Shown: positions 4,497 through 19,896, counted from the stretch's first letter. The stretch is DNA of 21,222 nt from Planctomycetota bacterium (GCA_027011425.1 JALUZX010000628.1:1-21222); one strand, 5' to 3'. Notes: a model not told the origin generated them from the sequence alone. Program-made: numbers and translations.

Positions 4497-6065
4497 ATGC
4501 TTGGAGGAATCTTGAACCAGGTGGCGGGAGGAGAAGGCGGCATCCTTCTCTCGCTGATCACCTTCGTGCCCATCCTGGGGATGCTCGTGATCCTCTTCAT
4601 CCCCAAGAAACAGCACGACATCATCCGGACCATCGCGGGCGTGGCCACGGGAATCCCCTTGGCTCTCTCGATCCTGCTCTGGTTCCTCTTCGATCCGTCC
4701 AAGGGAGGGGCCACGGCGGAGGCCATGCAGTTCGTGGAACGCCACGCCTGGATTCCCACCTTCCACATCCAGTACTACCTGGGCGTGGACGGCCTCAGCG
4801 TCCCCCTGATCTTCCTGAACTGCCTGCTCCTTTTCATCGCCGTTCCTGCCTCGTGGAAGATCGAGAAGGGCGTCAAGGGCTATTTCATGCTCCTTCTCCT
4901 CCTGGAGACGGGCATCACGGGATGCTTCGTGGCCCTGGACTTCTTCCTCTTCTACATCTTCTGGGAACTCATGCTGCTCCCCATGTATTTCCTCATCGGC
5001 ATCTGGGGAGGGCCCAGGCGGGAATACGCGGCGATCAAGTTCTTCCTCTACACCCTGGCCGGCTCGGTCCTCATGCTGGTCGGGCTCGTGGCGGTCTACC
5101 TGATCTCCGCCAAGGAGGGCAACCCCACCTTCGACCTCATGGCGCTGGCCGAGATGGCCAGAAGCGGAAAGCTCGGCGCGAACTGGAGCGTGCTGGGCAT
5201 GGGCTTCAAGACCTGGCTCTTCTGGTTCCTGTTTGTCGCCTTCGCCATCAAGGTGCCCATCGTCCCCTTCCACACGTGGTTGCCCGACGCCCACGTTGAG
5301 GCCCCCACGCCGATCTCCGTGATCCTGGCCGGGATCCTCCTGAAGCTCGGGGGCTACGGGATGCTCAGGATCAACTTCCCCCTGGCCCCCGAAGCGTTCC
5401 GCCGTTTCGCCGTCGTCCTGGCCGTGATCGGGCTGGTGAGCATCGTCTACGGGGCCTTCGTGGCCATGGCCCAGAAGGACTTCAAGAAGCTCGTGGCCTA
5501 CAGCTCGGTGAGTCACATGGGCTACGTCCTCCTGGGATTCGGGTCCCTGGCCCTCCTGGGCTTCGCCGGGGGCGCTTTCCAGATGTTCGCCCACGGCACC
5601 TCGTCGGCCATGATGTTCTTGATCGTGGGCGTTATCTACGACAGGGCCCACCACAGGGACCTGAACCGGTTCGGCGGATTGGGGTCCCGGATGCCCTACT
5701 ACGCCGGCCTCGCCTCGGTGGGTTTCTTCGCGGCCCTGGGCCTTCCCAGCATGTCCGGGTTCGTGGCCGAATTCCTCACGCTGATCGGGGCATACGAGGG
5801 GGACCACACCAGGTGGATGGTGCTCATCGCCATCGTGGGCGTGGTGATCACCGCGGCCTACATCCTCTGGACGATCCAGCGGGTCTTCCTGGGCCCCATG
5901 AAGAACGAGGAATACAAGAAGTTCCCCGACATCAGCCTGCGGGAGGCCATCTGCCAGGCCCCCCTGGGGCTCTTGTGCATCCTTTTCGGCGTTTTGCCCT
6001 TCCTCCTGCTGGACACGATGAGGCCCTCCCTCGAGGGGCTCATGGGCGTTCTCGGGCTCAAGTGA
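4497..6065 (+). CDS. nuoM: NADH-quinone oxidoreductase subunit M (antiporter-like)
   Basis: 522-aa polytopic protein with the NuoM/ND4 pattern (WLPDAHVEAPTPISVILAGILLKLGGYG) in the canonical position. GGCAGGAG lies upstream of the ATG. Confidence 0.9.
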   Translation: MLGGILNQVAGGEGGILLSLITFVPILGMLVILFIPKKQHDIIRTIAGVATGIPLALSILLWFLFDPSKGGATAEAMQFVERHAWIPTFHIQYYLGVDGLSVPLIFLNCLLLFIAVPASWKIEKGVKGYFMLLLLLETGITGCFVALDFFLFYIFWELMLLPMYFLIGIWGGPRREYAAIKFFLYTLAGSVLMLVGLVAVYLISAKEGNPTFDLMALAEMARSGKLGANWSVLGMGFKTWLFWFLFVAFAIKVPIVPFHTWLPDAHVEAPTPISVILAGILLKLGGYGMLRINFPLAPEAFRRFAVVLAVIGLVSIVYGAFVAMAQKDFKKLVAYSSVSHMGYVLLGFGSLALLGFAGGAFQMFAHGTSSAMMFLIVGVIYDRAHHRDLNRFGGLGSRMPYYAGLASVGFFAALGLPSMSGFVAEFLTLIGAYEGDHTRWMVLIAIVGVVITAAYILWTIQRVFLGPMKNEEYKKFPDISLREAICQAPLGLLCILFGVLPFLLLDTMRPSLEGLMGVLGLK

Positions 6066-6080
6066 CGGTAGGGAGAGTCC

Positions 6081-7787
6081 ATGAGTCAGCTTCAGGCATA
6101 CATTAAGGATCTGGGTTGGATCGGGCCGGAACTGGTTCTGGCCGCGACGGCCCTGGTGGTCCTGCTGGTGGAACTCTACCGGCGGGGCCGCAAGTCCGGC
6201 TGGTCCCTGGGGCTGGCCCTGGTGATCACCCTGGCCGCCGGGTTCGGGCTCTCCTGGCTGGGGAGGACTTTCTCGGCCGCCCTGGGAAGGCCCGTGGACC
6301 TGCGCCTGGACGTGGCGGTCCTGGGGCTGGTCTACGTGCTCGTCACCATGGGGGACCTCTGGTTCAAGGGGGACAAGTGGGACCGCCTCGTGCCCGGGCT
6401 GGTGGTCCTGGCCGGGACCCTGCTGGCCGGGTATTACGCCGTGGGCCTCATGTCCGCCCTCTCAGCCGACCCCAAGGGGACGAGCGTCTTCGGGCTCCAG
6501 CTCGTGGACTCCTACTCGGTCTACTTCAAGCTCCTGGCCCTGGTCTCGCTTTTGGTGGTGACCCTTTTCACCATGAACTACCGCGACCTGAAGCGGGGGT
6601 TCGGCGAGTATTACCTCTGCCTTGTGGGCGCCCACCTGGGGATCATGTTTTTGGTGAGCAGCAATCACCTGCTTCTCATCTACCTGGGCCTCGAGACGCT
6701 TTCCTTGAGTTCCTACCTGCTCGCGGGTTTCCGCAAGGAGGATCCCCGCTCCGCCGAGGCGGCGGTGAAATACGTGATCTACGGGGGCGTGGCCAGCGCC
6801 ATCATGCTCTTCGGGTTTTCCCTGATCTTCGGGCTGGGCGGTTCCCTGGACCTGGTGGAGATCGGGCGCCACCTGGCCGGCACGGCCCAGGGGTCCAACC
6901 GGGTGCTCGTAGGCCTGGGCATGGCCTGCACCTTGGGAGGACTCTCCTACAAGATCGCCGCCGTGCCCTTCCACTTCTGGTGTCCCGATGTCTACGAAGG
7001 CGCCCCCACGCCGGTGACGACCTTCCTTGCCGTGGCCAGCAAGGCCGCGGGTTTCGCCGTGATCGTCCGGATCGTGGCCGTCCTGGGGCAGGGCCCGGGA
7101 TGGCTGGAGAAGGTCACCTCGCTCATGGCCGTGGCCTCGGCCTTGAGCATGACCTACGGAAACCTGGGGGCCCTCCACCAGACCAACGTGAAGAGGCTTC
7201 TCGCCTACTCATCGATCGCCCACGTGGGCTACATTCTCATGGCCGTGGCGGCCCTCTTCGGCGCCGCCACCGCGGGGGAGGGTGGGACCTTCCACGTCGA
7301 TCCCAGGGCTGCGGAGTCGATCCTCTACTACTTGGGAGCGTATATGATCATGAACCTCGGCGCCTTCGGCGCGGTCATCTACATCGCCAAGAGCGCCGGT
7401 TCGGAGGACATGGACGACTGGTGGGGCCTGGGGTGGAAACTGCCCGTGGTCTCGGGGGTCCTGGTGATCTTCCTCTTGTCCCTTACGGGAATCCCGCCGA
7501 CGGTGGGGTTCTACGGGAAGTGGCTCCTCTTCCGGACGGCCATCGCCGGGGGGTTCCTCTGGCTCGCCGTATTGGCCGCCGTCAACACGGTGTTTTCCCT
7601 TTTCTATTATTTCAAGGTGGCCAAGGTCCTCTTCCTGAAGCCCGCCGAGGAGAGCCGGGGCGTGACCGTCCGCCCCGCCGCCGTGATGGCCGTGGTCCTG
7701 GTGGCCCTGGGCCTCCTCACCCTCTTCTTCGGAGTCCTGCCCTCCGCCCTGGAAAGCCTGGCCGGCGCCTCCGCCGCGGCCTTGTAG
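6081..7787 (+). CDS. nuoN: NADH-quinone oxidoreductase subunit N (antiporter-like)
   Basis: 568-aa polytopic protein with the NuoN/ND2 pattern (FHFWCPDVYEGAPTPVTTFLAVASKAAGF). A GGGAGAG Shine-Dalgarno lies 6-7 nt before the ATG, and it is the last gene of the canonical nuo order. Confidence 0.9.
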   Translation: MSQLQAYIKDLGWIGPELVLAATALVVLLVELYRRGRKSGWSLGLALVITLAAGFGLSWLGRTFSAALGRPVDLRLDVAVLGLVYVLVTMGDLWFKGDKWDRLVPGLVVLAGTLLAGYYAVGLMSALSADPKGTSVFGLQLVDSYSVYFKLLALVSLLVVTLFTMNYRDLKRGFGEYYLCLVGAHLGIMFLVSSNHLLLIYLGLETLSLSSYLLAGFRKEDPRSAEAAVKYVIYGGVASAIMLFGFSLIFGLGGSLDLVEIGRHLAGTAQGSNRVLVGLGMACTLGGLSYKIAAVPFHFWCPDVYEGAPTPVTTFLAVASKAAGFAVIVRIVAVLGQGPGWLEKVTSLMAVASALSMTYGNLGALHQTNVKRLLAYSSIAHVGYILMAVAALFGAATAGEGGTFHVDPRAAESILYYLGAYMIMNLGAFGAVIYIAKSAGSEDMDDWWGLGWKLPVVSGVLVIFLLSLTGIPPTVGFYGKWLLFRTAIAGGFLWLAVLAAVNTVFSLFYYFKVAKVLFLKPAEESRGVTVRPAAVMAVVLVALGLLTLFFGVLPSALESLAGASAAAL

Positions 7788-7887
7788 GCTTCAGTTGGAC
7801 TGCAGAGGGGAATCCGCCGGCGGTTGATTGGACCGGTGGAAGGAGCTAGCCTCTTATGTGAATCCTCAGGGTCGACAGGAGGCTGAA

Positions 7888-8571
7888 ATGCCTTTCGAAG
7901 AGGTGGAACTGGAGGCCCTATACGGCCCTCTCAACGAAACGGAGAAGAAAAACGCCCCGGCAACCCTTTTCGTGGCCGGGGACAAAGAACTCCTGCGCAG
8001 GGGAAGAAGGGTTTCCGTCGTCGGAACCAGGAAGCCTTCCGAGGAAGGCCGGAAAAGGGCGGAAAGATTCACCCGATTCCTGGTGGAAGAAGGGATCACC
8101 GTGGTGAGCGGGCTTGCCCAGGGCATCGACACCGTCGCCCACTGGACGGCGATCGAGTCGGGAGGGCGAACCATCGCCGTCCTGGGGACGCCCCTGGACA
8201 AGTGCTACCCGGCGAAGAACAGGGAACTACTGGAAAGAATCATGCGGGAACACCTGGCCGTTTCCCAGTTTCCCCCGGGTTCTCCCGGGGGCAGGCGTTG
8301 TTTCCCCATGCGGAACCGTACCATGGCCCTTCTTTCGGACGCTACGGTCATCATCGAGGCGGGGGATGGAAGCGGGACCCTTCACCAGGGGTGGGAAGCT
8401 CTTCGGTTGGGCCGGCTTCTTTTTCTGGCGGAGTCTCTTACCAAAGACCCCTCTGTGAAGTGGCCCGCTGAAATGATCCATTACGGGGCCCAGGTTTTGT
8501 CCGACACAAAACATTTTCTCGACCTTCTCCCCGAGATTGGGCGGAACGAGGTCGCCGATCTTGATTTCTAA
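7888..8571 (+). CDS. DprA/Smf-family Rossmann-fold domain protein (DNA-processing protein A-like, domain-minimal). Likely start is the ATG at 7888 with an AGGAGG Shine-Dalgarno; the ORF track starts it at an upstream TTG (7828)
   Basis: Motifs VVSGLAQGIDTVAH, IAVLGTPLDKCYPAKNRELLERI, FPMRNRTMALLSDATVIIEAGDGSGTLHQG and LRLGRLLF reproduce the conserved blocks of the DprA Rossmann domain (GxARGID..AH; VLGtGlD..YP..N; RNRIiaglS..vVvEA...SGsL). At ~227 aa it has no room for the N-terminal SAM-like or C-terminal winged-helix domains. Confidence 0.7.
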   Translation: MPFEEVELEALYGPLNETEKKNAPATLFVAGDKELLRRGRRVSVVGTRKPSEEGRKRAERFTRFLVEEGITVVSGLAQGIDTVAHWTAIESGGRTIAVLGTPLDKCYPAKNRELLERIMREHLAVSQFPPGSPGGRRCFPMRNRTMALLSDATVIIEAGDGSGTLHQGWEALRLGRLLFLAESLTKDPSVKWPAEMIHYGAQVLSDTKHFLDLLPEIGRNEVADLDF

Positions 8572-9193
8572 GGTCGAATTCGGATCCTTTCTGGTCTATT
8601 CGCCGCGGGGCGTCTCACCTACATCGAAAAAGTCCAGTCGTTTGGTGCGTGCTGTCAAATGCGACCATCCTGGTATTGTGAGAAAAGCGGCGATTGCCTT
8701 AAAAAAGAGCAAGGAGGCTGAGAAGCTGGGCCTCTTCGATTTCTTTCGTGACGCAATCCTCGTTCCCGTTCCCGGTTGTGCGCCGATCAAGAAAGGGTAT
8801 CATTGGCCTGCGTTGCGGATTTGCCAAGAGTTGCAAAATGCAGGCTTGGCAAGGGTCGTTTATCAGGGTTTGGTAAGGGAGCATTCTGTTCCAAAATCCG
8901 CTTACGCCGCCCCTGGGGAAAGGCCCGGGCCAGAGGTGCACGTCCGATCTTTTACTTTCCATGGGATACCCGGGCTCTTTGAAAGAAAAATACTCCTGGT
9001 GGACGATGTCATTACCAAGGGCGCCACATTGCTTGCCGCCGCGACTGTGGTTTTGGAAAGTCCTGTTCCCTTGGATGTTCGTTGTTTCGCCCTGGTGAGG
9101 ACGATGGGACTTGTGCCGGACGTGGAAAAGATCGTCGACCCTTGTGTGGGAACCATCACCTGGGATGGATCGGATGTCCATCGATGGCCTTGA
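8537..9193 (+). CDS. ComF/GntX-type phosphoribosyltransferase (PRTase) domain protein without N-terminal zinc finger. There is no in-frame ATG; start is TTG/GTG (8537, 8561, 8642 or 8645) and uncertain. Overlaps the preceding gene
   Basis: PRPP-binding loop ILLVDDVITKGATLLAAA. The upstream block ILVPVPG...KKGYHWPALRICQELQNAGLARV...VREHSVPKSA and the distal CFALVRT follow the ComF-family layout (VPVP..RGfNqa..LA..l; VLLVDDV.TTGAT; vLaRt). Codon usage is A/T-richer than the flanking genes. Confidence 0.7.
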   Translation: MGGTRSPILISKVEFGSFLVYSPRGVSPTSKKSSRLVRAVKCDHPGIVRKAAIALKKSKEAEKLGLFDFFRDAILVPVPGCAPIKKGYHWPALRICQELQNAGLARVVYQGLVREHSVPKSAYAAPGERPGPEVHVRSFTFHGIPGLFERKILLVDDVITKGATLLAAATVVLESPVPLDVRCFALVRTMGLVPDVEKIVDPCVGTITWDGSDVHRWP

Positions 9194-9236
9194 TCCTCCT
9201 TGGAACTACTTCGGATGGTTGCGGAAGGCCAAAGAA

Positions 9237-9268
9237 AAAGGGGCGGAACGAAGGCGTTCCGCCCCTTT
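9237..9268. terminator. Bidirectional intrinsic-terminator-like hairpin between the convergent genes ending at 9193 (+) and 9303 (-)
   Basis: Perfect inverted repeat aaaGGGGCGGAACG-aagg-CGTTCCGCCCCttt (11-bp GC stem extended by A/T pairs). It is flanked by an A-run on the left (a U-run for the minus-strand transcript) and TTTCC on the right. Confidence 0.5.
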
Positions 9269-9302
9269 CCTCATCCGGAGAGATCCGGCGAGGGCCCGGG
9301 TC

Positions 9303-10394
9303 TCAGTTGTGCCAGAACATCAGGGTGTCGCCCCGCTTTTTCCAGGGACCACTGTTGAAGAGGGGATCGGTGTCGGGGTTCACGCCGCCCGTGTAGTAGC
9401 TGTAGGCCATGGGGACCGGAATGCCGCCCGCGGCAGGGCCGATGATCCCGGTGAAGCAGTTGGAGAGGCCCAGGTTGACGGTGGTCCCTTTGACGTTGAT
9501 CAGGGCGAACTGGGCGTAGACGGGGGTGCCCGCGAAGAAGGCCTGGTTGGGGATGGGCCAGTTGGCCTTGACGGAGGACCCGGTAATCGGAAGGACCTGG
9601 GTCAGGTCGATGCTGCAGTAGATTTTGCATCCCTTGAAGCCCAGGGGGGTGAGGTCGAAGGGAAGGGGAATTCCCGAAAAGTTCTTCAGGCTGGTCCCGA
9701 TCCAGGCGAGGGCCGTTCCGGTCGTGGGGCTGAGGGAGGAAACCCTGGTGTAGAAGGCGCCTCCGACTTTCAACTGGCTGGAAATTCCGTAGATATAGTT
9801 CTTCTTGGCCGGGCAGCCCGCTCCCACGTACCCGGAGAGCCCGCCCGAGGTGGTTCCGTAGAAACGATCACAGTTGTAGGTGGCTATTTTGTTGCCCGTC
9901 TTGTCGTAGTTGCTGACTTCCACCAGGAAGTTTCCACCTTTGTAGGGGAAGGGCCTGTCGAGTTTGTGAATGAGGATGGGCTTCCAGGGATATTGGGGCA
10001 CCGTGACGGCGGGGAGGGAGATGATCCTCTTCCTGAAGACGATCGCGTGGTCTGCTCCCCGGTTGAGCTTGGGGTTCTTGCTCATCGTGGCGGAAGCGGC
10101 CTTGGTGTTGCTCATCTCGATCTGGGTGACGAGTTTCTTTGCGGCATAAGTGGCCGAGTAGCGCCCCTCGTGGCGGAAGGCCACGGCAAAGATGACCTTG
10201 CCGGCGGGAACGCCCATTGCCTTCTTGTCGATCACCTCCTGGTAGAGCATGTTGGTGTCGCGGTAGGGCTTGAAGTGCCAGGAGGAGCCCTCGATGTACT
10301 TGGCCTGCTTGGGCGCCGTGTCCAGAATGCCTTGAGAGAAGGCAAAGCTGGAGAGCCCGGCGAGGGCTAGGGGAAGAAGAATGCGTGCTTTCAT
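9303..10394 (-). CDS. Hypothetical Sec-secreted protein (364 aa) of unrecognised family. Start is the ATG at 10394; the ORF track extends it spuriously to 10742
   Basis: N-terminus MKARILLPLALAGLSSFAFSQG is a classical signal peptide (basic n-region, hydrophobic core, small residues before the cut). AAGGAG lies 6 nt upstream of the ATG. Third-position G/C bias is strong throughout, consistent with genuine coding, and the mature part is Gly/Thr/Ser/Tyr-rich with several Cys. Confidence 0.65.
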   Translation of the reverse strand: MKARILLPLALAGLSSFAFSQGILDTAPKQAKYIEGSSWHFKPYRDTNMLYQEVIDKKAMGVPAGKVIFAVAFRHEGRYSATYAAKKLVTQIEMSNTKAASATMSKNPKLNRGADHAIVFRKRIISLPAVTVPQYPWKPILIHKLDRPFPYKGGNFLVEVSNYDKTGNKIATYNCDRFYGTTSGGLSGYVGAGCPAKKNYIYGISSQLKVGGAFYTRVSSLSPTTGTALAWIGTSLKNFSGIPLPFDLTPLGFKGCKIYCSIDLTQVLPITGSSVKANWPIPNQAFFAGTPVYAQFALINVKGTTVNLGLSNCFTGIIGPAAGGIPVPMAYSYYTGGVNPDTDPLFNSGPWKKRGDTLMFWHN

Positions 10395-10477
10395 AGAGTT
10401 ACTCCTTGCTCTGAATGGGTTGGGGAAGAGTTTAAAAGGAACAGACGCCCGGGCTGGCCCCGGGCTGAAAAGGGATA

Positions 10478-10504
10478 ATTGTAAGACTTTCAGAAGACAT
10501 GCAA
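10478..10504 (-). promoter_or_regulatory. Candidate sigma70-like promoter for the secreted-protein gene (minus strand: TTGCAT - 15 nt - TACAAT)
   Basis: The hexamers were read off the reverse complement of the AT-rich 10395-10560 interval. Spacer is a short 15 nt, and nothing confirms that this organism uses sigma70 consensus promoters. Confidence 0.2.
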
Positions 10505-10596
10505 AGTTCCTTGTTTTTAAAAAATAACTTCCAAGTTTGAGACACTTCAGGTCATGGGACCCCCTGTTCCCCCAGGCCTTGACTCCACCCATGAAT

Positions 10597-10623
10597 CCCC
10601 CTAACCCTGCAGGGGGGCTTTTT
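10597..10623 (+). terminator. Orphan terminator-like hairpin on the + strand (CCCCCT-aaccctgc-AGGGGG followed by CTTTTT)
   Basis: 6-bp GC stem, 8-nt loop and a T5 tail. No + strand gene is upstream, and the orientation is wrong to terminate the minus-strand MNT gene. Confidence 0.3.
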
Positions 10624-10720
10624 GTAAGAAACAAGCAATGGGGCCTGTTCGGTCCGGGATTCGGTGGGTGCTTCGGGACCGGCCCCCGACGTCCCGGGAC
10701 GGGATCAGCGATCCGGGCCT

Positions 10721-11017
10721 TCAGGGAAGCAGGACCTCCCACTTTCCTTCCAGGGCCGCCCGGAAGGAGGGGCTGGTCCGGTGCCAGTCCACCAGGTCCA
10801 CCCGGAAGGGGAGGTCCGATTTGGAAAAGGCGTCTTTCAGGCGCGATAGGACGGCCCGGGGGATCTTGTCTTCCCCCACCAGCAGAAGGTCCAGGTCCGA
10901 ATAGGGCTGGGCCTTCCCTGTCGCCCGTGACCCGAAGACCCGCACTTCCACGCCGTGGAGATGGGCTTTCAGGATCTTCTTTACCAGGTCCATCTCTTCC
11001 GGGGTCAGGTCAATCAT
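10721..11017 (-). CDS. Minimal nucleotidyltransferase (MNT, HI0073-like) domain protein, putative antitoxin. Start taken as the ATG at 11017 (MIDLTPEEM...); an alternative ATG at 11035 would overlap the HEPN gene by 26 nt
   Basis: VRVFGSRATGKAQPYSDLDLLLV is the canonical MNT GS-x9-13-DxD nucleotidyltransferase signature. Size is ~98 aa. Confidence 0.75.
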   Translation of the reverse strand: MIDLTPEEMDLVKKILKAHLHGVEVRVFGSRATGKAQPYSDLDLLLVGEDKIPRAVLSRLKDAFSKSDLPFRVDLVDWHRTSPSFRAALEGKWEVLLP

Positions 11018-11460: not shown

Positions 11461-13599
11461 TCAAATGTCTTCGCCCCTCGTTTCCTCCACGATGGGGTCC
11501 ACGTGGTTCTTCCGGCCCGTGCGGGCGTAGGTATAGAGGAAGAAGCAGAGCAGGATCATGGCGCCGATGGAGATCCATTCCCCCAGGGTCTCCAGGTTCT
11601 TGCCCCGAAGAAGGAAGAGTTGTTTTTTGATCGACTCGAAGACCGGGTAGCCCGTGCTCGAGACCGGGCAGATCCCCCTCTCCCAATCGACGACCAACAC
11701 CGAGCTGGGCCAGGATGCCAGAACGGCGTCCAGGATGCCCACGAGCCCGCCTCCGGCGATGAGGCCCGAGGCGATGAGGATGCCCTTGTCGTGGCCGGCC
11801 TTGGTGGCCTTGGGATCCTCTCCTTCCCGTTTCCGGCCCACGAGGTACGCCACGAAGCCCCCGATCATGACGGGCACGTTGAGCTGGATGGGGAGATACA
11901 TCCCCAGCGCGAAGGCCAGGGCCGGGATCCCCACCATGCGGAGGATCAGGGCGAAGATCACCCCGAGCCCGAAGAGGATCCACCGGATCCCCTGCTCCGG
12001 GTTCTTGCCCATGATCCCCTGGATGATCTCCTTCATGGCGCTGGCCTGGGGCGCGGGGAAATCGGCCGACCCGAAGTGGTTCTTGGAGAGGAGCCACATG
12101 GCCAGGGCGCAGGAAAGGGCGGCCGCCGCTGTTCCCACGAACTTCCAGAGGAGCTGGTTGCGCGGCGTTGCGCCGATCCAGTAGCCGATCTTCAGGTCCG
12201 AACTCAGGGCGCCCGAGGCGGCGAGGGCCGTGCAGACCACGCCTCCCACGATCAGGGCGACAGTCATTCCCTTGGGTCCCGTGAGGCCTATGGAGAGGAA
12301 GACGATGGCCGTGATGATCAGGGTCATCAAGGTCATGCCCGAGACCGGGTTGGTCCCGACCAGCGCGATGGCCCGGGCCGCCACGGGAGCGAAGAGGAAG
12401 GCGATGACCAGCACGATGGCGAGCCCCACCAGGGCCTGGGGAAGGCTGGTGCCCAGGACGAGCCAGAAGAAGCCCAGGGCCAGGGCGGAGAGAAGAACCA
12501 GGCCGATCCCCACTTCCTTCATGGTCAGGGAGCGCATGATCCTGGGAACCCCGCCTCCCTCCTCTCCGTGGTGGCCGAGACCTTTCATGCCGAAGGCGAT
12601 GGAGCGCATCATGGAGGGGAAGGCCGCGATGATCCCGATGATTCCCGCCCCGGCGATGCCACCGATGCCGATCATCCGCACGTAGGATGTGAAGACGTCG
12701 TCGATGGACATGGCCGAGAGAAGCCTGGTCCCAGGGGGCACGATCTGGGTGACGTAGGGGGCGAAGGCGTGCACGAGGGGAATCAGCACGAAGTAACTGA
12801 CGAAGCTCCCGGCGCAGATGATGGCGGCGTACTTGAGCCCGATGATGTAGCCCACGCCGGTGACGGCCGCCAGGTTGCTGATCCGGAGGGTCATGAACTG
12901 GGTCTCCAGGAACCCGCCGATGGTCATGAGCTTGCCCTGGGCGTCGTGGAGGAAGGGGATGGGCACGCTCTTGAAGTCGATCAGGTCCCGGAAGGCGTGG
13001 AGGGTCTGGCCGCAGAACTCGTAGAATCCGCCGAGAAGGGTGGAGATCACCAGCACCAGGGCCTGGCCGCTGGTCCCTTCGCTGGAGACCAGGATCTCCG
13101 TGGTGGCCGTGGCCTCGGGCCAGGGGAGCAGGCCGTGTTGTTCGGCCATGAAGTAGTGCCTGAGCGGCGTGAAGAAGAGAATGCCGTAGGAGCCGCCCAG
13201 GAATGCCGTGAGGGCCGTGACGTACCAGGATGGCGGAATCCCCAGCATGTAGAGGGCCGGGATGGTGAAGACCGCGCCCGCCACGACGTGGGAGGAGTTG
13301 GCCCCGATGGACTGGATGATCACGTTTTCCAGGATGGAACTCTTCCTGGAGTAGAATTTTCCCATCCCGATGGCCAGGATGGAGATGGGAATGGCCGCCT
13401 CGATGCCCTGGCCCACCTTGAGGGCCAGGTAGGCCGCCACCAGGGAGAAGAGCACCGTCATGGCGAGCCCGGTGACCACCGAGCGCAGGGTGATCTCGGG
13501 GAGGGTCGACTCCGTGGGGATCAAGGGCCGGTAGACTTCGCCGGGCTTCAGGGGGGTCTTCGCGTTGTCGGGAAGGCGGAATCCTTGGGTCTCCGTCAC
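11461..13599 (-). CDS. OPT-family oligopeptide transporter (bacterial OPT superfamily), GTG start preceded by AGGAGG
   Basis: 712-aa protein with many TM segments. The N-terminal block ITLRSVVTGLAMTVLFSLVAAYLALKVGQGIEAAIPISILAIGM resembles the conserved start of bacterial OPT transporters (TLRAvilG...LGLKVG.t..AsIPaAV). Confidence 0.65.
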   Translation of the reverse strand: MTETQGFRLPDNAKTPLKPGEVYRPLIPTESTLPEITLRSVVTGLAMTVLFSLVAAYLALKVGQGIEAAIPISILAIGMGKFYSRKSSILENVIIQSIGANSSHVVAGAVFTIPALYMLGIPPSWYVTALTAFLGGSYGILFFTPLRHYFMAEQHGLLPWPEATATTEILVSSEGTSGQALVLVISTLLGGFYEFCGQTLHAFRDLIDFKSVPIPFLHDAQGKLMTIGGFLETQFMTLRISNLAAVTGVGYIIGLKYAAIICAGSFVSYFVLIPLVHAFAPYVTQIVPPGTRLLSAMSIDDVFTSYVRMIGIGGIAGAGIIGIIAAFPSMMRSIAFGMKGLGHHGEEGGGVPRIMRSLTMKEVGIGLVLLSALALGFFWLVLGTSLPQALVGLAIVLVIAFLFAPVAARAIALVGTNPVSGMTLMTLIITAIVFLSIGLTGPKGMTVALIVGGVVCTALAASGALSSDLKIGYWIGATPRNQLLWKFVGTAAAALSCALAMWLLSKNHFGSADFPAPQASAMKEIIQGIMGKNPEQGIRWILFGLGVIFALILRMVGIPALAFALGMYLPIQLNVPVMIGGFVAYLVGRKREGEDPKATKAGHDKGILIASGLIAGGGLVGILDAVLASWPSSVLVVDWERGICPVSSTGYPVFESIKKQLFLLRGKNLETLGEWISIGAMILLCFFLYTYARTGRKNHVDPIVEETRGEDI

Positions 13600-13633
13600 C
13601 TGGTCCTCCTGTCTTTTCCGGTGCTCCCGGGGA

Positions 13634-14089
13634 TCAGCTCCCCGATCTCCAGACCTCCTCGGGGTCGATCTCGAAGAGGTCGGCCCCGCCGAAGAAGAAG
13701 TGGACTTCCGTGGAGGCGTTCTCCACGGAATCCGAGCCGTGAACGGCGTTTTTCTCGATGGACGTCCCCAGGTCGCCCCGGATGGTCCCCTTGGGGGCTT
13801 TCCTGGGATCGGTGGGTCCCATGAGTTGGCGCCACCGTGCCACGGCGTTCTCCCCGCGGAGGGCGAGGAGCACCACCGGGCCGGAGGTCATGAAATCCAC
13901 CAGCGATTCGAAGAAGGGCTTGCCCCGGTGGACGTAGTAGAAATTCCGCGCCCGGGCGTGGCTGAGCCTCTCCATGCGGAGAGCCGCGATCTCCAGGCCC
14001 GCCGCCTCGATCCGGGAGAGGATCTCTCCCACCAGTTTCGACGCCACGGCGTCGGGCTTCACGATGGCCAGGGTGGTCTCTTTCGCCAT
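13634..14089 (-). CDS. ndk: Nucleoside diphosphate kinase
   Basis: LAIVKPDAV, FMTSGPVV and NAVHGSDS (active-site His) match the NDK family. The ATG lies 3 nt after the stop of the upstream gene. Confidence 0.9.
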   Translation of the reverse strand: MAKETTLAIVKPDAVASKLVGEILSRIEAAGLEIAALRMERLSHARARNFYYVHRGKPFFESLVDFMTSGPVVLLALRGENAVARWRQLMGPTDPRKAPKGTIRGDLGTSIEKNAVHGSDSVENASTEVHFFFGGADLFEIDPEEVWRSGS

Positions 14090-14092
14090 GGG

Positions 14093-15931
14093 TTACAGGT
14101 ACCTCCAGCCGGGCCGCCGGGAGGGCCTCTTCAAAGGGTCGCGCGGAGGCTCGTCCCCGCCGGCGGATCCCCGGGACGGCGGGGGGGCGTAGCCCGTGAA
14201 GGATCGCTTGCCGGCGGCGATGGCGAAGGTCCGCTCCGCCGCCTCGACGATCTCGGGCTTCAAGCCTTCCCGTGCCACCTCCTCGGTGAACTTCCGCCGC
14301 CCTTCCACCAGGTCCTCGATGTAGGCCCGGATCTGCTCCTCGGAGTAGAAGTTCCTGGGATTCCAGTGGGAGAGATCCCCTCCTTCGCAGGAGACGATGC
14401 TCCTGGTGCCCAGGATGCCCGGGGCGTAGCGGTTGGTTCCCCGGAAATCCCCCCTCTGGATGGCGGCCATGAGTTCCAGGGGGACCCGCTCCACCTTCCG
14501 GACGACCCGCTTGACCGTCTTTCCGCCTTCCCGGGAGGTCTCGATGATCTCTCCCATTCCGCCCGTGTTGTATTGCATGAACTTGACCTTGCCCGGGTAG
14601 CGGGAGACCAGGCCCATGACGATGTCGTGGAACTGGTTCACCTTGGCCGCCCGGGAGCCCACGATGAAGGGGTCGGTTCCCACGATCCGGACGGACTCCC
14701 CGGCCTTGGCCGGGTTGGAGGCGTAGCTGTGGGTCGATTCCCCCCAGAGGTAGGCGAGCACCGCCTCCTCGGGGGTCAGCTCCTGGGCGAAGCTCATGAT
14801 GGTGTGCCTTCTCGTGATGAAGGCGAACATGAGACCGTCCAGTTCCTCCAGGGAGGGGAGGTTGATCGTCTTGGCGCTGATGCAGATTTTCCTGTGGCCC
14901 CGCTTGATCTTGAGCTGGTTCCTCTGGACGATGCCCCGCCCGTTCTTGCAGAGGCTCTCGTCCAGGAAGAGAAGCTCGCCCTTGTGGTTCACCATGACGT
15001 TTTCCAGGAGGGCCGACCGGTGGCTCAGGGCGTGGTACATGGCCTCCTGCTGCTCGGGGACCACGTCGGTCTTCACGTAGAAGCCCGCCTCGGAGCCCAG
15101 GGCGGAGCCGTCGGGGGAGAGGAAGACGATGTCGTCCTGGGCCACCTCGGTCCGCTCGCCGGCGGCGTAGTCCATGTGGAGCTGGTGGCAGGACCAGGTG
15201 GATTTTCCCGTGGCCGTAAGCCCGAAGATCAGGCAGCCCCAGCGCTTGAGCCGGCCCGTGGCGGCGTCCTTGGCGGTGACTACCTTGGAGCCTGCGTGGA
15301 GGCCGAGCATCCCCATGCCACTCGCCGTATACATGGCCTGGCGGAGGAAGCCTTTCTTGTCCTCACCCATGTAGTCGCTTCCGAGAACCACGGTGATCCC
15401 GTGTTCGGGGAGCATGAGGACCTTCTGGTCCATGTGGTGCTCCTCGGGGATATGGATCAGCGTGAATCCGGGCCCGGGGCGCTTCCGGGAGGGGGGCGCC
15501 ATGGTGTTCCCCCACATGAAGGCCAGCCTGGCGTTCTTGGGGTCGGCCGTGGACACGAAGAGGTTGCAGTCGGGGTTGAACCTCTCGTTGTCCCCCATCC
15601 GGCGCCGCAGGTGGATGAAGGGGAGGGTCTCCAGGAGGTGGAGGACCTTTTCGAAGGTCTTGGGCGCGTCCTGGATGATGGACTCCTGCAAGGGCGTCGG
15701 GTTGGGAAGGCGGACCTTCTCGGGTCCCAGGTAGACCGTCTTGGGCGCGATCCGGCTGGAGACGCAGGATCGCCAGACCAGGGAGCCGTTCTTGGTGTGG
15801 AAGGCCGTCTGTTCGGCCAGGGGCTCGATCTCCTCCAGGGTCAAGGTCTGGATGTTCCTGCGTCTTTCCAGGTCCCGCAGGGCCCCGGCGAAGCGGTCGT
15901 AAGCGGCCAGGTCGTAGATGTCGGTCCTCAT
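14093..15931 (-). CDS. Divergent ATP-dependent phosphoenolpyruvate carboxykinase-like protein (PckA family) with a Pro/Arg-rich C-terminal tail
   Basis: IFGLTATGKSTWS corresponds to the PckA kinase-1a motif GLSGTGKTTLS. GFYVKTD, ALLENV and YNTGGMGE align with PckA CYAKT, ALLENV and VNTGWTGG respectively. Residues beyond these blocks are divergent. Confidence 0.6.
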   Translation of the reverse strand: MRTDIYDLAAYDRFAGALRDLERRRNIQTLTLEEIEPLAEQTAFHTKNGSLVWRSCVSSRIAPKTVYLGPEKVRLPNPTPLQESIIQDAPKTFEKVLHLLETLPFIHLRRRMGDNERFNPDCNLFVSTADPKNARLAFMWGNTMAPPSRKRPGPGFTLIHIPEEHHMDQKVLMLPEHGITVVLGSDYMGEDKKGFLRQAMYTASGMGMLGLHAGSKVVTAKDAATGRLKRWGCLIFGLTATGKSTWSCHQLHMDYAAGERTEVAQDDIVFLSPDGSALGSEAGFYVKTDVVPEQQEAMYHALSHRSALLENVMVNHKGELLFLDESLCKNGRGIVQRNQLKIKRGHRKICISAKTINLPSLEELDGLMFAFITRRHTIMSFAQELTPEEAVLAYLWGESTHSYASNPAKAGESVRIVGTDPFIVGSRAAKVNQFHDIVMGLVSRYPGKVKFMQYNTGGMGEIIETSREGGKTVKRVVRKVERVPLELMAAIQRGDFRGTNRYAPGILGTRSIVSCEGGDLSHWNPRNFYSEEQIRAYIEDLVEGRRKFTEEVAREGLKPEIVEAAERTFAIAAGKRSFTGYAPPPSRGSAGGDEPPRDPLKRPSRRPGWRYL

Positions 15932-15943
15932 CGGGCAAGCACC

Positions 15944-18277
15944 TCAGGAAATTCCCGCGAGTCGTTTCAGCTGGTCCAGGGCGGCGGGAAGACCCGTTCC
16001 GCCCACCCTGAAGAGGAAGGGTTCCGACAGGTCGAAGAGGCGCAGATAACTCCGCCTCTGGAAGGAGAGCCTGTCCTCGCCGGCGTCCAGGATGTGGGGA
16101 TTCAGGAAGGGGTGTCCCCCTGCGCCGGTGGTGGTGGAGAGGGATTCCAGTGTCCGGACCGCTTCGTCCGGCTTGATGGGTTCGGGGGAGCCCGTCCCGC
16201 TCTCCGGGGAGAGGAGCACGGTCCACCGGATGTTGGTCCGCCTCGCGTATTTTTCGCTTCCCCCGATCCAGAAGGGATCGAGGAGGGCGTGGGAGTCCTT
16301 GGAGGCGAAGAGGCAGTAGGGGGCGCCCTTCTCCAGGAGGCAGTCCCCGGCGAGTTCGCAGGATGTGTTCCGGCAGTCCTCGCGCCGGGTGACCACATTG
16401 AGGCAGAGGCTCCTGGCGACGGGGTCTTCCAGGGAGGGAACGGTCTTCACCGTCCTGGCGGGAAGGAAGATCTTCCGCTCGGGCATGTCCGCCGTGGCCG
16501 CGCCTCCGCCGTAGTGCAGGAAGGAGAGGTCGATGCCGTGGAGCCTCACGCCCTTTTCCCGGAGGAGCCCGAAGGTGAGTTCCGTCTTCATCACCCCCGC
16601 GGGCCCGAGCAGGAGCAGTCCCTTGCCGTCCAGGTCGAGGCTCATCCCTCTGACCGCATGGGCGTCGCCGAGCCTTCCGCTGATGTCGGCCGCCGTCCCC
16701 AGCGCCAGGGTGCGGAGCCTGGCGTAGTCGTCGCAGTTGACCAGAAGGGCCGTCCGCGTCTCGGGGTCGTAGTAGGCGTGGGGCTCGCGGCCTTTGACCC
16801 CTTCCACGGCGTAGATTACGGCGTGGGGCTCGATGTCCGCCTCCAACTCGGCGGGAAAGAAGTTCTCCGTGAAGAGTTCGCACAGGTGGGGGAGGTTGGT
16901 CCGAAGCTGGATCACGAGTCCCGCCACGTTTGCGTTCCACTCGTGGTAGTGGTCGAAGGGAAGGAAGCTCTCCACCTCGGCCACCAGGGCGTTGCGCCGC
17001 TCGGCGCCGGGCTGGATCTCCAGGGGGACGGGTTTCCTCGAGCGGGTGCGGATGTTGCGGAGGGCGGCTTTGCGGACCTTGCGGGCCGGTTTCAGCTTGC
17101 CCAGGGCGGCGGAGATCCGGTCCGCCGCCGCCGAGAGGTTCTCCATGGAAGTTGCATAGGAGAGGCGGATGTGGTCGTCGGCGCCGAAGGCGTCCCCCGG
17201 CACGACCGCCACGGCCGCCTCCTTGAGGAGGAAGTAGGCCAGGCCGTAGGAGTTGCGCATGGGCACGCCTTCGTACTCCAGGTCGTAATAGGCGGAGACG
17301 TTGGGGAAGAGGTAGAAGGCCCCTTCCGGCCGGTGGCAGGACACGCCCGGAAGGGATGCGATCCTCTGGTGGAGGTAGTTGCGGCGGCGGCTGAACTCCA
17401 TGGCCATCCTGCGCACCTCGAACTGGGGGCCCGAGAGGGCCTCACGGGCGGCCTCCTGGGAGATGGAGGAAGCGTTGGATGTGACGTGTCCCTGGATCTT
17501 GGCCATGGCGGCGATGACCGGCTCGGGGCCGGCGGCGAATCCAAGCCGCCAGCCCGTCATGGCGAAGGCCTTGGAGACGCCGTTGATCACCACCGTCCGC
17601 CGGCGGACTTCCTCGCCCAGGGAGGCGAAACTCGTGAACCGGAAATCGTCGTAAACGAGTTGGCTGTAGATCTCGTCGGCCGCCGCCAGGATGTCCTCTT
17701 CCACCACCACCCGGGCCAGGGCCTCGAGCTGGTCCCTGGTGTAGGCCGAGCCCGTCGGGTTGGAGGGGTTGTTGAGGAGAAGGAGCCTGGTGGAGGGGGT
17801 GATCGCCGCCCGGAGTCGTTCCGGGTCCACCCGGAACCCGTCCTCCTCGCGGGTGGCGAGGATCACCGGGGTCCCGCCGGCAAGCTCCACCATCTCCGGG
17901 TAGGAGACCCAGTAGGGGGAGGGGATGATCACCTCGTCCCCCTCGTCCACCAGGGCCATCACCAGGTTGAAGAGGGACTGCTTGGCCCCCGTGGAGACCA
18001 GGATCTCCCGGATGCCGTAATGGAGCCCGTGCTCGCGGCGGAGCCAGGCTGCGGCCGCCTCGCGGAGTTCCACGGTCCCCTGGTTGAGGGTATACCTGGT
18101 CTTGTCGGCGTCGATGGCCCGGCGGCCCGCCTCCTTGACGTTGCGGGGCGTGGGAAAGTCGGGCTCGCCCACGCTGAGATCGATGACGTCGATCCCCTGG
18201 GCCCGCATGGCCTTGGCCTTGGCGGAGATCTTCAGTGTGGCCGAGGCGCCGACGCGCTTGACTCGATCGGAAAACAC
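15944..18277 (-). CDS. Fusion protein: N-terminal class-I (aspartate/aromatic-type) PLP aminotransferase plus a C-terminal ~350-aa domain with an HprK/PEPCK-like degenerate P-loop; GTG start preceded by GAGAGGAAGG
   Basis: Aminotransferase half: NNPSNPTG and SKAFAMTGWRLG (PLP-Lys) motifs, with an N-terminus like AspAT (RVKRVGASATLKISAKAKAMRAQGIDVIDLSVGEPDF). C-terminal half: GLLLLGPAGVMKTELTFGLLREKGVRLHGIDLS parallels the HprK C-domain pattern vLitGpSGvGKSE.aLeLi.rGhrLvaDD, but the GKS/T is replaced by MKT. The two halves are joined by a basic linker (KPARKVRKAALRNIRTRSRKP) in one continuous 777-aa ORF. Confidence 0.7.
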   Translation of the reverse strand: MFSDRVKRVGASATLKISAKAKAMRAQGIDVIDLSVGEPDFPTPRNVKEAGRRAIDADKTRYTLNQGTVELREAAAAWLRREHGLHYGIREILVSTGAKQSLFNLVMALVDEGDEVIIPSPYWVSYPEMVELAGGTPVILATREEDGFRVDPERLRAAITPSTRLLLLNNPSNPTGSAYTRDQLEALARVVVEEDILAAADEIYSQLVYDDFRFTSFASLGEEVRRRTVVINGVSKAFAMTGWRLGFAAGPEPVIAAMAKIQGHVTSNASSISQEAAREALSGPQFEVRRMAMEFSRRRNYLHQRIASLPGVSCHRPEGAFYLFPNVSAYYDLEYEGVPMRNSYGLAYFLLKEAAVAVVPGDAFGADDHIRLSYATSMENLSAAADRISAALGKLKPARKVRKAALRNIRTRSRKPVPLEIQPGAERRNALVAEVESFLPFDHYHEWNANVAGLVIQLRTNLPHLCELFTENFFPAELEADIEPHAVIYAVEGVKGREPHAYYDPETRTALLVNCDDYARLRTLALGTAADISGRLGDAHAVRGMSLDLDGKGLLLLGPAGVMKTELTFGLLREKGVRLHGIDLSFLHYGGGAATADMPERKIFLPARTVKTVPSLEDPVARSLCLNVVTRREDCRNTSCELAGDCLLEKGAPYCLFASKDSHALLDPFWIGGSEKYARRTNIRWTVLLSPESGTGSPEPIKPDEAVRTLESLSTTTGAGGHPFLNPHILDAGEDRLSFQRRSYLRLFDLSEPFLFRVGGTGLPAALDQLKRLAGIS

Positions 18278-18315
18278 CTTCGCCTTCCTCTCCCGGGGGT
18301 TTCAGGATCCCGGGC

Positions 18316-19731
18316 CTACTCCCGGTCTTCCTCTTCTTCTTTCTTGGAGCCGAATTTCCGCTGGAGCACTTCCTTGATGTCAACGCCCGCCAGGGCCTTG
18401 ACCACCTCCGGAAGTTGGGCAAGGACTGAGGCCACCTGCCCGGTGAGCGCCGAGGGGCCGCCCGCGCCGGAACCGCCCACCATGACGATCTTGTCCACCT
18501 TGGAGAGGGGCTCCGAGACGGAGCGGGCGAGTTCGGGCATGGCCTGGAAGAGCATCTGGGCCAGGGCCGTCTCGGGCTGGGAGGCCAGGGCCTTGAGCTT
18601 CTCGCTCGCCGCCTTGGCCTCGGCCTTTCCGAGGGCCTCCGCCCGAAGGGCCTCGGACTCCCCTTCCAGCCTCCGGGCCTCCGCCTTGGCCTTGGCCTCC
18701 TCCTTGATCCGGGCCGCCTCGGCCTGGGCCTCGGCCTGGGCCTGGTATTTGCGGGCGTCGGCGATCTTTTTGACCGTGGCCTCCAGCTCTTTTTCTTTGC
18801 GGAGGATTTCCTTCTCCTGCAGCTCGATGGCCTTTTCCTTCTCGGCGATCCGGACATCGTATTCGGCCCGGCGGACTTCGAGTTCCAGGTTGTAGCGCTC
18901 CAGGTCGTAGGCCAGGTCCGTCTGGGCCTTGACCCGGTTGACCTTGGCCTGGTTCTCCGCCTTCTTCCCCTCGATCTCCAGGCGGAAGGCGGCGATCTCG
19001 GCCTCCGCCTGGATGCGCGCCTTGTCCCCCTGCTTGCGGGCTTCCGAGGCCTTGATCGTGGCGTCCCTGTCGGCCTCGGCCTGGGCCACCTCGGCCTCCG
19101 CCTTGACCCGGGCCACTTCCGGGCGGCCCAGGGCGTCCAGGTAGCCCTGGCTGTCGGTGAGGTCCTTGAGGGAGAAGGAGAGGATGGTGAGGCCCATGCG
19201 CTTCAGGTCCTCCGAGGCGGGCTCCAGGACCTTCCGGGCGAAGTCGTCCCGGTTCTGGTAGATCTCCTCCACCGTCATCTTGCCGATGGCGGCCCGCATG
19301 TAGCCCTCCAGCACGGTATGGGCCACCTCCCGGATGTAGTCGGCCCCCTTGCCCAGGAACTGCTCCGCCGCGGCGTGGATGGAGCCCTCGTCGGTCTGGA
19401 TCTTCACCTGGGCCAGGGCCTCGGCGATGAGCGGGACCCCCCGGGCGGAGAGGACCTCCGGGGTGCGGACGGGCACGGTCACCACCTCCAGGTTCAGGGT
19501 CTCTGCCCGCTCCAGGAAGGGGAGGACCAGGGTGCCTCCGCCCACGCAGGTCCGGTACCCCACCGTGACGGTCGTGCCGTCGGGCTTGGTGAGGGTCCGT
19601 TTCTTGAGCCCGTAGATGATGAGGACCTGGTTGGGGCCCACCTTCTTGTAGTTCTTGGAAGCAAGAAAGGCGATGCCCGAGAGCAGGGCCAGGACGACGA
19701 GGACGACGATGAGCGTGGCCATTTCCTCCAC
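18316..19731 (-). CDS. Flotillin-like SPFH/band-7 protein (FloA/YqiK-like) with a long Ala/Glu/Lys coiled-coil segment; start is GTG at 19731 or ATG at 19722
   Basis: N-terminal TM helix (LIVVLVVLALLSGIAFLA), an SPFH core (VVTVPVRTPEVLSARGVPLIAEALAQVKIQ) and an extended EA/AK-rich repeat region, ~470 aa overall, as in bacterial flotillins. Confidence 0.8.
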   Translation of the reverse strand: MEEMATLIVVLVVLALLSGIAFLASKNYKKVGPNQVLIIYGLKKRTLTKPDGTTVTVGYRTCVGGGTLVLPFLERAETLNLEVVTVPVRTPEVLSARGVPLIAEALAQVKIQTDEGSIHAAAEQFLGKGADYIREVAHTVLEGYMRAAIGKMTVEEIYQNRDDFARKVLEPASEDLKRMGLTILSFSLKDLTDSQGYLDALGRPEVARVKAEAEVAQAEADRDATIKASEARKQGDKARIQAEAEIAAFRLEIEGKKAENQAKVNRVKAQTDLAYDLERYNLELEVRRAEYDVRIAEKEKAIELQEKEILRKEKELEATVKKIADARKYQAQAEAQAEAARIKEEAKAKAEARRLEGESEALRAEALGKAEAKAASEKLKALASQPETALAQMLFQAMPELARSVSEPLSKVDKIVMVGGSGAGGPSALTGQVASVLAQLPEVVKALAGVDIKEVLQRKFGSKKEEEEDRE

Positions 19732-19867: not shown

Positions 19868-19896
19868 ATTCTACGGGGTGGGAGGGGAGGCGACAA
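19868..19896 (-). promoter_or_regulatory. Candidate sigma70-like promoter upstream of the flotillin gene (minus strand: TTGTCG - 17 nt - TAGAAT)
   Basis: The hexamers were read from the reverse complement of the 19732-19902 intergenic region. Spacing is ideal, but the hexamer match is only moderate and the assignment is speculative. Confidence 0.2.

Follow-up and report, generated by a model that had tools for sequence, protein, structure and literature searches.

The 21,222-nucleotide stretch of DNA from a Planctomycetota bacterium (GCA_027011425.1 JALUZX010000628.1:1-21222), referred to here as the window, encodes on its minus strand, at 15944..18277, a 777-residue fusion protein. A class-Ib aspartate aminotransferase (AspAT; residues 1-395) is joined by a basic linker (residues 396-425) to a miniature phosphoenolpyruvate carboxykinase (PEPCK) domain (residues 426-777). 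The C-terminal domain is a two-lobed PEPCK homologue shortened by ~160 residues, and its active site has been remodelled. The explanation that we favour, with somewhat less than even confidence, is that the fusion combines an AspAT with a pseudo-PEPCK domain that would bind an anionic ligand and/or dock PEPCK, and would thereby couple transamination to the interconversion of oxaloacetate and phosphoenolpyruvate (PEP).

Domain architecture of the fusion protein

The gene begins with a GTG codon, downstream of the Shine-Dalgarno-like sequence GGAGAGGAAGG, and comprises 777 codons and a stop. Because the GC content of the window is 65%, long open reading frames (ORFs) arise by chance. One of these, a plus-strand ORF of 1776 residues at 13565..18895, covers in antisense orientation the ndk, PEPCK and fusion genes as well as a portion of the flotillin gene; although an ORF caller could select it, this is a shadow ORF of high-GC DNA and no gene. 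The minus-strand ORF at 15944..18277 is a real gene and not a product of chance, as 77 intact orthologous ORFs of 774-791 residues are found in other genomes.

The aminotransferase domain (17093..18277, minus strand), delineated by PF00155 and PDB alignments, matches Aminotran_1_2 (PF00155) along residues 30-388 with an E-value of 5.8e-77 (259.7 bits against a cut-off of 19.7) and covers positions 2-361 of the 361-position profile. The top PDB sequence matches are the AspAT 1j32 (3e-115), the aspartate/prephenate aminotransferase 5wmh and the Thermus AspAT 1bkg. The N-terminal 395 residues align end to end with the class-Ib enzymes of Thermus thermophilus (1bkg) and Phormidium lapideum (1j32), with E-values of 1e-99 to 3e-115, and the bifunctional aspartate/prephenate aminotransferases of Arabidopsis (5wmh) and Sinorhizobium (6f35/6f77) are among the class-Ib relatives matched. 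The best-scoring NCBIfam models for the protein are likewise aspartate transaminases, all under their equivalog cut-offs (the best, NF004769, scores 432.8 bits against 617).

The motifs NPSNPTG and SKAFAMTGWRLG are both present in this half. Alignment with 1j32 assigns the active-site residues as K236 (SKAF, within GVSKAFAMTGWR), which is the lysine that forms the Schiff base with pyridoxal phosphate (PLP), N173 (NPSNPTG), D201 and Y204 (DEIY), and R371 (IRLSY). In addition, K99 (STGAKQS) aligns with the GGKQS segment of 1j32 and corresponds to Thermus K109, the Ib-type lysine that binds the distal carboxylate. All of these residues are conserved in at least 97% of 78 orthologues. Judged by its sequence, the aminotransferase half is catalytically intact and is predicted to be a working enzyme, most likely with aspartate and oxaloacetate as its substrate pair; prephenate aminotransferase activity, as for Ib enzymes, is a possible alternative prediction. 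The sole peculiarity of this half is a clade-specific conserved 9-residue insertion, YYDLEYEGVPMRNSYG, at residues ~330-338. The fusion differs from all of the solved AspAT chains aligned (370-475 residues) by this insertion and by its ~380-residue C-terminal extension. An architectural analogy, and only that, may be drawn with Methanosarcina mazei CobD, a bifunctional L-threonine kinase/threonine-phosphate decarboxylase. CobD is also a PLP-dependent enzyme of the aminotransferase fold with a Cys-rich metal-binding extension and a link to phosphotransfer, but it belongs to another aminotransferase subgroup, its extension is much shorter and does not adopt the PEPCK fold, and its context is the cobamide pathway.

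The linker (17003..17092, minus strand; KPARKVRKAALRNIRTRSRKPVPLEIQPGA) includes the basic string KPARKVRKAALRNIRTRSRKPVP and the conserved residues N408 and T411, and its predicted local distance difference test (pLDDT) values are below 50 in the models. The junction residues L395, K396, L406 and N408 are kept in at least 95% of the 78 orthologues, and T411 is invariant in smaller alignments.

The C-terminal domain (15947..17002, minus strand), which contains the block GLLLLGPAGVMKTELTFGLLREKGVRLHGIDLS, has both lobes of the PEPCK fold. Its family is not evident from curated models: in Pfam and NCBIfam alike, the domain stays below the cut-off of every model, and PF01293 and TIGR00224 do not match residues 396-777, so that the PEPCK homology is visible only in profile-to-profile comparison. 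The AlphaFold model of residues 396-777 is of good quality (pLDDT 79.9; predicted template modelling score, pTM, 0.82), and each of its top 50 Foldseek matches is a PEPCK (E-value 6e-14, TM-scores of 0.6-0.71). In hhalign, a broadened C-domain profile comprising fused and standalone relatives aligns with a PEPCK profile whose master sequence is E. coli PckA (identical to 1aq2_A), with 98.8% probability and an E-value of 1.3e-16; the 344 aligned columns correspond to E. coli residues 74-466. Both profiles needed to be broadened for this result, as a global hhalign comparison of a narrow C-domain profile with the single E. coli PckA sequence returned nothing. The long alignment together with the Foldseek matches indicates homology to the whole two-lobed PEPCK and not to an HPr kinase/phosphorylase (HprK)-like nucleotide core alone. 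Relative to the ATP-dependent enzymes (E. coli PckA, 1aq2; T. cruzi, 1ii2; Thermus, 1j3b), the domain is the shorter by the ~160 residues noted above, contains an extra insert with 4-5 Cys residues and gives no PF01293 match.

HprK was nevertheless the best match at the level of sequence. A single-sequence search detected Hpr_kinase_C (PF07475) faintly (E-value 0.19, 11.7 bits against a cut-off of 33.3), TIGR00679 matched the domain with an E-value of 0.004 (16.4 bits against 240), and a profile of ten relatives retrieved four HprK chains from the PDB at E ~0.005, covering the motif H..G..D..G.G.L..G..G..K[ST]...D. These matches are the basis for an alternative in which the domain would be an HprK-like protein kinase/phosphorylase that regulates flux by acting on the aminotransferase, PEPCK, flotillin or an HPr-like protein. 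We consider this quite doubtful. The scores fall far under the cut-offs, as they do for the uncharacterised HprK-related kinases A/B and ScmC (TIGR04352, TIGR04355 and TIGR04249), and the PEPCK fold match is twice as strong and includes the N-lobe, which HprK lacks; conversely, the N-terminal domain of HprK is missing from the fusion. The HprK core can be aligned, yet the fusion has Arg543 in place of the HprK catalytic His, lacks the P-loop Gly, and carries Ile/Asn at position 582, where the ADD motif has its first Asp. Moreover, no HPr gene was found among the 20 window ORFs scanned against Pfam.

An earlier note on this DNA, made from the sequence alone, had described a complete class-I PLP aminotransferase connected through a basic linker to a ~350-residue PEPCK/HprK-like domain. 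That description is borne out by the PF00155 match and the accompanying motifs, by the linker string and the domain at residues 426-777, and by the profile and structure comparisons of the C-terminal half.

The remodelled active site and the standalone relatives

The fused C-domains belong to the same family as standalone mini-PEPCKs (hmmsearch E-values of 1e-87 to 1e-14), which are unannotated hypothetical proteins of 320-410 residues (P0022, P0024, P0036 and P0041) or 480-566 residues (P0060, P0073 and P0101) and carry no aminotransferase. The two groups share the N-lobe motifs NG..VQL.TN..HL.DFW.ENW. The standalone proteins keep the PEPCK catalytic set, namely YYGQxKS, SIHG, APTGTGKS(T), HSDDW, SER..Y.RTD and NSRA, whereas the fused clade has replaced it. 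With the canonical motifs kept, the standalone proteins are probably active enzymes.

The catalytic positions were counted in 30 standalone relatives and 78 fused proteins, using E. coli PEPCK numbering transferred through the profile alignment. K212 is Lys in 29/30 standalone proteins and Arg in 77/78 fused ones (R522 in the window), and the Mn ligand H232, His in 28/30 standalone proteins, is also Arg in 77/78 of the fused clade (R543). The P-loop residue G253 is Gly in 29/30 standalone proteins and is replaced by Lys (58 of the 78), Arg (7) or others in the fused ones (M563 in the window). D268 changes from Asp (28/30) to Asn (62/78; I582 in the window), and K288 from Arg/Lys (28/30) to Pro (67/78; P606). 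R333 is Arg in 27/30 standalone proteins; the fused proteins have His (26), Tyr (19), Gln (9), Phe (7), Ala (6) or Arg (5) here, with H663 in the window. Four positions are maintained in both groups: K254 (Lys in 29/30 and 77/78; K564), T255 (Ser/Thr in 29/30 and Thr/Ser in 76/78; T565), D269 (Asp in 29/30, and Asp in 68 and Glu in 10 of the 78; D583) and E282 (Glu in 29/30 and 77/78; E600). With respect to the PEPCK Mn2+ ligands K213, H232 and D269, the K212/K213 pair is replaced by R522/T523 and H232 by R543, leaving D269 as the only ligand kept. An initial mapping, in which H540 was equated with H232 and E600-R601-K602 with the R333 loop, was overturned by the better profile alignment given here, which places H232 at R543, E282 at E600 and R333 at residue 663.

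The P-loop of the window protein, GPAGVMKT (residues 558-565; 16583..16606, minus strand), is non-canonical, as is the clade consensus GPKGTKKT. K564 and T565 are kept, and the deviations are V562 in place of Thr and M563 in place of Gly, position 563 being Lys in most of the clade. The kinase-1a pattern G-x-x-G-x-G-K-[ST] is not matched in the fused clade, where Gly precedes the Lys in just 2/78 proteins and the loop has drifted through GKT, KKT, GRT, GRP, VKKE and VMKT. N-lobe motifs such as EWNANI.G..VQLRTN..HL are invariant in the same proteins. The equivalent of R65 is unaligned, as the profile alignment begins at E. coli residue 74 and the Arg65 segment lies outside the homologous span. 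The domain extends only a little beyond the strand that corresponds to LVNTGW of E. coli, and the alignment tail, which concerns the adenine-binding segment (the R449, I452 and T455 region), is of low confidence.

Where PEPCK has the hairpin leading up to Arg333, the domain has a Cys-rich insert, C625-x9-C635-x4-C640-x5-C646-x8-C655 (16313..16405, minus strand). Its residues are highly conserved among the 78 orthologues (C625 in 77, C635 in 78, C640 in 74 with His in the other 4, C646 in 78, and C655 in 74 with Ser in the other 4), and this pattern makes it a probable binding site for Zn or Fe-S. Among the standalone relatives, the insert is optional. A positively charged pocket is retained, formed by R522, R543, K564/T565, D583 and E600-R601-K602. 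Taken together, the active-site pattern is probably that of a repurposed, non-catalytic domain.

The alternative that the domain is an active, minimal PEPCK-like phosphotransferase/decarboxylase that interconverts oxaloacetate and PEP, perhaps with Arg/Lys standing in for Mn2+ or with a phosphoryl donor different from ATP, is unlikely. In its favour, the whole PEPCK fold is present, K564, T565, D583 and E600 are kept, and many polar residues are invariant, including those in EWNAN, QLRTN, EPH, GRE and ERK. The standalone relatives look fully catalytic, one of them with an intein right after GTGKS, and a nucleoside diphosphate kinase (NDK) gene adjoins both the fusion cluster in the window and a standalone relative in Omnitrophota. 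Opposing this are the replacement in the fused clade of five positions that are near-invariant in PEPCK and the standalone relatives, the location of the Arg65 region, and perhaps of the C-terminal adenine-binding segment, outside the homologous span, the free variation of the P-loop within the clade and its absence from two proteins (P0016 and P0032), and the bona fide PEPCK encoded next door, which would make a second one redundant.

These results modify what had been proposed for the C-terminal domain. The earlier note had taken the Walker-A Lys-Ser/Thr pair to be altered; the pair is intact, and the replaced residue is the Gly before it. The description as a degenerate P-loop domain holds as to the degeneracy, which resides instead in metal and phosphoryl-transfer positions (H232, G253, D268, K288 and R333). 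The suggested coupling of transamination to phosphotransfer is argued against by the substitution pattern, and a second catalytic phosphotransfer step is the less likely possibility. The same pattern favours the sensor or regulatory part of the other suggestion, a kinase-like sensor domain, or else a docking role.

Two features of the wider family concern its P-loop. P0101, a 754-residue relative of the 550-residue class, contains an intein directly after the P-loop GTGKS, and this position suggests that the P-loop is functionally critical in that subfamily. A standalone subgroup (P0059, P0096, P0105, P0114, P0139, P0149 and P0150) has no P-loop and keeps a 4-Cys cluster (C..C..C..C after ENV); its members look like independent pseudoenzyme derivatives of the mini-PEPCK family.

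Conservation of the fusion and its gene neighbourhood

A word-indexed search found 12 relatives, each with the end of the aminotransferase, and an exhaustive profile search yielded 296 C-domain clusters at 50% identity. At least 221 genomes, Zixibacteria-like ones among them, encode the C-domain in a scan of one genome per species, and the synteny counts given here refer to the best 80 of these. The 80 belong to Aminicenantes/Acidobacteriota, Calditrichota (including Caldithrix abyssi), Ignavibacteria, Fischerbacteria and unclassified metagenome-assembled genomes (MAGs). The aminotransferase and the C-domain are in the same frame in 79/80 loci, the two tblastn matches being separated by 4 codons or fewer; only in L072 does the aminotransferase match fall in a different frame. 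Intact fusion ORFs of 774-791 residues are present in 77/80 loci.

The gene is split or frame-shifted in three public assemblies (L001, 9001..11287; L002, 2972..5319; and L072), which is what would be expected had a frameshift or mis-assembly merged two separate genes in the window, a possibility that the earlier note had itself entertained. L001 carries further split genes (Formyl_trans_N and adh_short), and this points to an error-prone assembly rather than to real gene fission; the split versions in all three assemblies are likely frameshift errors. Given the single intact ORFs with contiguous in-frame halves in 77 of the 80 species genomes, the in-frame arrangement in 79, and the conserved junction sequence, this reading was rejected, and its probability is negligible.

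Near-identical copies of the window occur in three MAGs. The closest public copies, with 96% identity over the C-domain, are from MAGs (L011, CAYQBW010000046.1; L008, GCA_027057615.1; L010, GCA_015494315.1). L011 is labelled 'uncultured Planctomycetia'; the label 'uncultured Eubacteriales', frequent in the same series, seems to be assigned automatically and to be unreliable. Public records name the fusion protein 'hypothetical' or merely 'aminotransferase'. No description of the fusion or of the mini-PEPCK family was found in the literature searched or in the curated family models of Pfam and NCBIfam, in agreement with the earlier view that the fusion is not a described family. Neither the fold nor either parent family is new; what appears to be undescribed is the fusion, the remodelled site, the synteny with flotillin and PEPCK, and the mini-PEPCK family.

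In the window, the fusion gene lies within a same-strand run of genes on the minus strand. Upstream by 38 nt is a gene for a 471-residue flotillin/SPFH protein (18316..19731) with an N-terminal hydrophobic helix, a Band_7 match (E-value 1.7e-27) and a Flot domain. Downstream by 12 nt is the gene for a 612-residue PEPCK (14093..15931; PF01293, E-value 3e-25), followed after 3 nt by ndk (13634..14089; PF00334, E-value 8.8e-54) and finally by an OPT oligopeptide transporter gene (11461..13599; PF03169, E-value 2.6e-84). All related loci whose flank is long enough (L006-L090) have a flotillin gene upstream on the same strand, and in ~58/80 loci a 610-residue PEPCK gene lies directly downstream, as it does in L001, L006 and L007. 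The same flotillin-fusion-PEPCK trio was recovered when starting from PEPCK, in Latescibacteria and in a complete Aminicenantes chromosome. NDK is encoded downstream in only a few of the 80 loci. The earlier note had correctly listed the PEPCK-like, ndk and OPT neighbours, of which the first proved to be widely conserved and ndk did not, and it had missed the invariant flotillin partner.

The downstream PEPCK scores 89.2 bits with PF01293 (cut-off 26.5) and 286.8 bits with NF006821, below the cut-off of 369. Its catalytic motifs are kept in alignments to 1ii2 and 1j3b (YMGEDKKG, LHAGSK, GLTATGKST, QDD, EAGFYVKT, LENV and CKNGRG). It belongs to a very large clade annotated as PEPCK (ATP), with ~60% identity across phyla, and is remote from the textbook enzymes (E-value 4.5e-7 to 1ii2). 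From these motifs, it is most likely the functional PEPCK of the organism.

A second fusion links the mini-domain to PEPCK itself. P0032, an 899-residue protein found on three contigs and retrieved as two loci from two samples (L004, 8001..10700; L005, 7138..9837), consists of a mini-PEPCK domain fused to a PEPCK part that passes the NF006821 cut-off (416 against 369). Its mini-domain is of the fused-clade subtype, with the motifs LRS.ALG, LRG, HSND and SERK, and retains nothing of the P-loop. The surrounding genes look archaeal (V4R and faint TFIIE-alpha matches). Together with the synteny, this fusion provides Rosetta-stone evidence that this subtype of the mini-domain works with PEPCK and needs no P-loop.

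Among the standalone mini-PEPCKs, no flotillin neighbour was found in the three loci examined (L003, L091 and L092), and the neighbourhoods offer no consistent functional clue besides one NDK adjacency. P0036 adjoins a radical-SAM-like gene, P0164 adjoins ABC/CbiMQO transporter genes, and P0024 adjoins NDK. The P0024 gene (409 residues) is in an Omnitrophota MAG (GCA_016206665.1; L092, 4325..6077), located 23 nt after ndk and followed by yicC and guanylate kinase genes; the family is here associated with NDK and nucleotide functions for a second time, independently of the first.

Possible coupling of transamination to the PEPCK reaction

According to the favoured explanation, the N-terminal domain would interconvert aspartate and 2-oxoglutarate with oxaloacetate and glutamate. 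The C-terminal domain, having kept the pocket, gained the probable Cys-rich metal site and lost the residues for metal-assisted phosphoryl transfer, would catalyse no reaction. It may bind an anion, either a metabolite or a nucleotide, that resembles PEP, oxaloacetate, phosphate or an NTP, and/or pair with the true PEPCK encoded by the neighbouring gene. Production or consumption of oxaloacetate by the aminotransferase could in this way be coupled, by allostery or by proximity, to the oxaloacetate-PEP step, and the flotillin-fusion-PEPCK(-NDK-OPT) run may constitute a module that connects aspartate, oxaloacetate and PEP in amino acid or peptide catabolism or in aspartate synthesis. The domain identities, the fold, the conserved fusion and synteny, and the substitutions in the active site are established here; the loss of catalysis, the binding of a ligand and the physical or functional coupling to PEPCK and to flotillin are what we infer.

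Both elements of this proposal resemble known systems. The 'prozyme' of trypanosomatid S-adenosylmethionine decarboxylase (AdoMetDC) is a pseudoenzyme paralogue that partners or regulates its catalytic relative. The likeness to this prozyme, and to the Euglena complex I subunit NDUEG2 (8j9h_E2), in which the PEPCK fold is reused without catalysis, would be one of function and not of family membership. AspAT feeds PEPCK in PEPCK-type C4 photosynthesis. The route from AspAT to PEPCK is established in Pichia as well, as the GDH2-AAT2-PEPCK pathway (10.1101/2021.03.10.434748).

Several observations weigh against the proposal. K564 and T565 are kept in 76-77 of the 78 fused proteins, and D583, E600, R601 and K602 are near-invariant, as would fit a still-active enzyme with altered chemistry. 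The residue mapping was derived from a profile alignment and not from an inspected superposition, so one-residue shifts are possible (K212 versus K213 and the R333 register). The AlphaFold2 model of the full-length protein (pTM 0.52) shows no confident packing of the domains, and its confidence is poor in the N-terminal region, which few sequences cover. Finally, PEPCK is not adjacent in ~20/80 loci, where the next genes are on the opposite strand. As PEPCK is sometimes absent and flotillin is constant, flotillin and the fusion form the invariant pair; flotillin is a tighter partner than PEPCK, and the proposal does not account for this linkage.

The constancy of this pair leads to a further alternative, in which flotillin and the fusion would be the functional unit, the PEPCK-fold domain would serve as a module for recruitment to, or assembly at, membrane microdomains, and the adjacency of PEPCK would be secondary. 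We regard it as rather unlikely. In its favour, the flotillin gene is present wherever the flank suffices and PEPCK is missing downstream in the ~20 loci just mentioned, and neither the examined standalone loci nor the P0032 fusion has a flotillin neighbour. Against it, such an interaction would be without known precedent; the Rosetta-stone fusion ties the domain to PEPCK and not to flotillin, and the adjacency may reflect no more than a shared promoter.

A bolder extension of the favoured coupling, one that we hold to be improbable as a complete scheme, would accommodate both partners. A 'pro-PEPCK' pseudoenzyme would tether the dimeric AspAT to the neighbouring PEPCK on flotillin-organised microdomains beside the peptide transporter, producing a metabolon, gated by the metabolite in the dead site, in which labile oxaloacetate is channelled from one reaction to the other, transamination and PEP formation. 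If true, this tethered membrane metabolon would be without a described counterpart among the assemblies of bacterial central metabolism. Among the best Foldseek matches of the C-domain model is PDB 9a4u_A, titled as an integrative crosslinking mass spectrometry model of PCKA-QOX2; judged from its title, it may be a precedent for the association of a PEPCK with a membrane protein.

AspAT and PEPCK stand at the junction of amino acid and carbohydrate metabolism. The conservation across several phyla of a fusion annotated only as 'aminotransferase' shows that Aminicenantes, Calditrichota, Ignavibacteria, Zixibacteria-like and related lineages, which are abundant peptide-degrading bacteria of sediments, have a different arrangement of this node. 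Should the C-domain be a ligand-sensing or docking pseudo-PEPCK, the fusion would clearly exemplify, for bacteria, the recruitment of an enzyme paralogue as a regulatory or scaffolding module, possibly with channelling of oxaloacetate. The analysis also exposes a wider, unannotated family of P-loop mini-PEPCKs, comprising the 296 clusters, whose members look catalytically competent from their motifs. Caldithrix abyssi is in culture and carries the fusion gene, and the hypotheses are thus directly testable.

As for the remaining features of the window, a sigma-70-like -35/-10 match upstream of the flotillin gene (19868..19896, minus strand) is a possible promoter of the operon, on weak evidence (1 site against 0.6 expected). 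Rfam and tRNA scans of the window gave no matches. At 9111..10742 long ORFs occur on both strands (419 residues on the plus strand and 479 on the minus strand), neither with a Pfam match. Another part of the window is ordinary context, with three consecutive Proton_antipo_M genes (nuoL/M/N-like; 2332..7787, plus strand) and, beyond them, dprA (7828..8571) followed by a ComF-like phosphoribosyltransferase gene (8537..9193).

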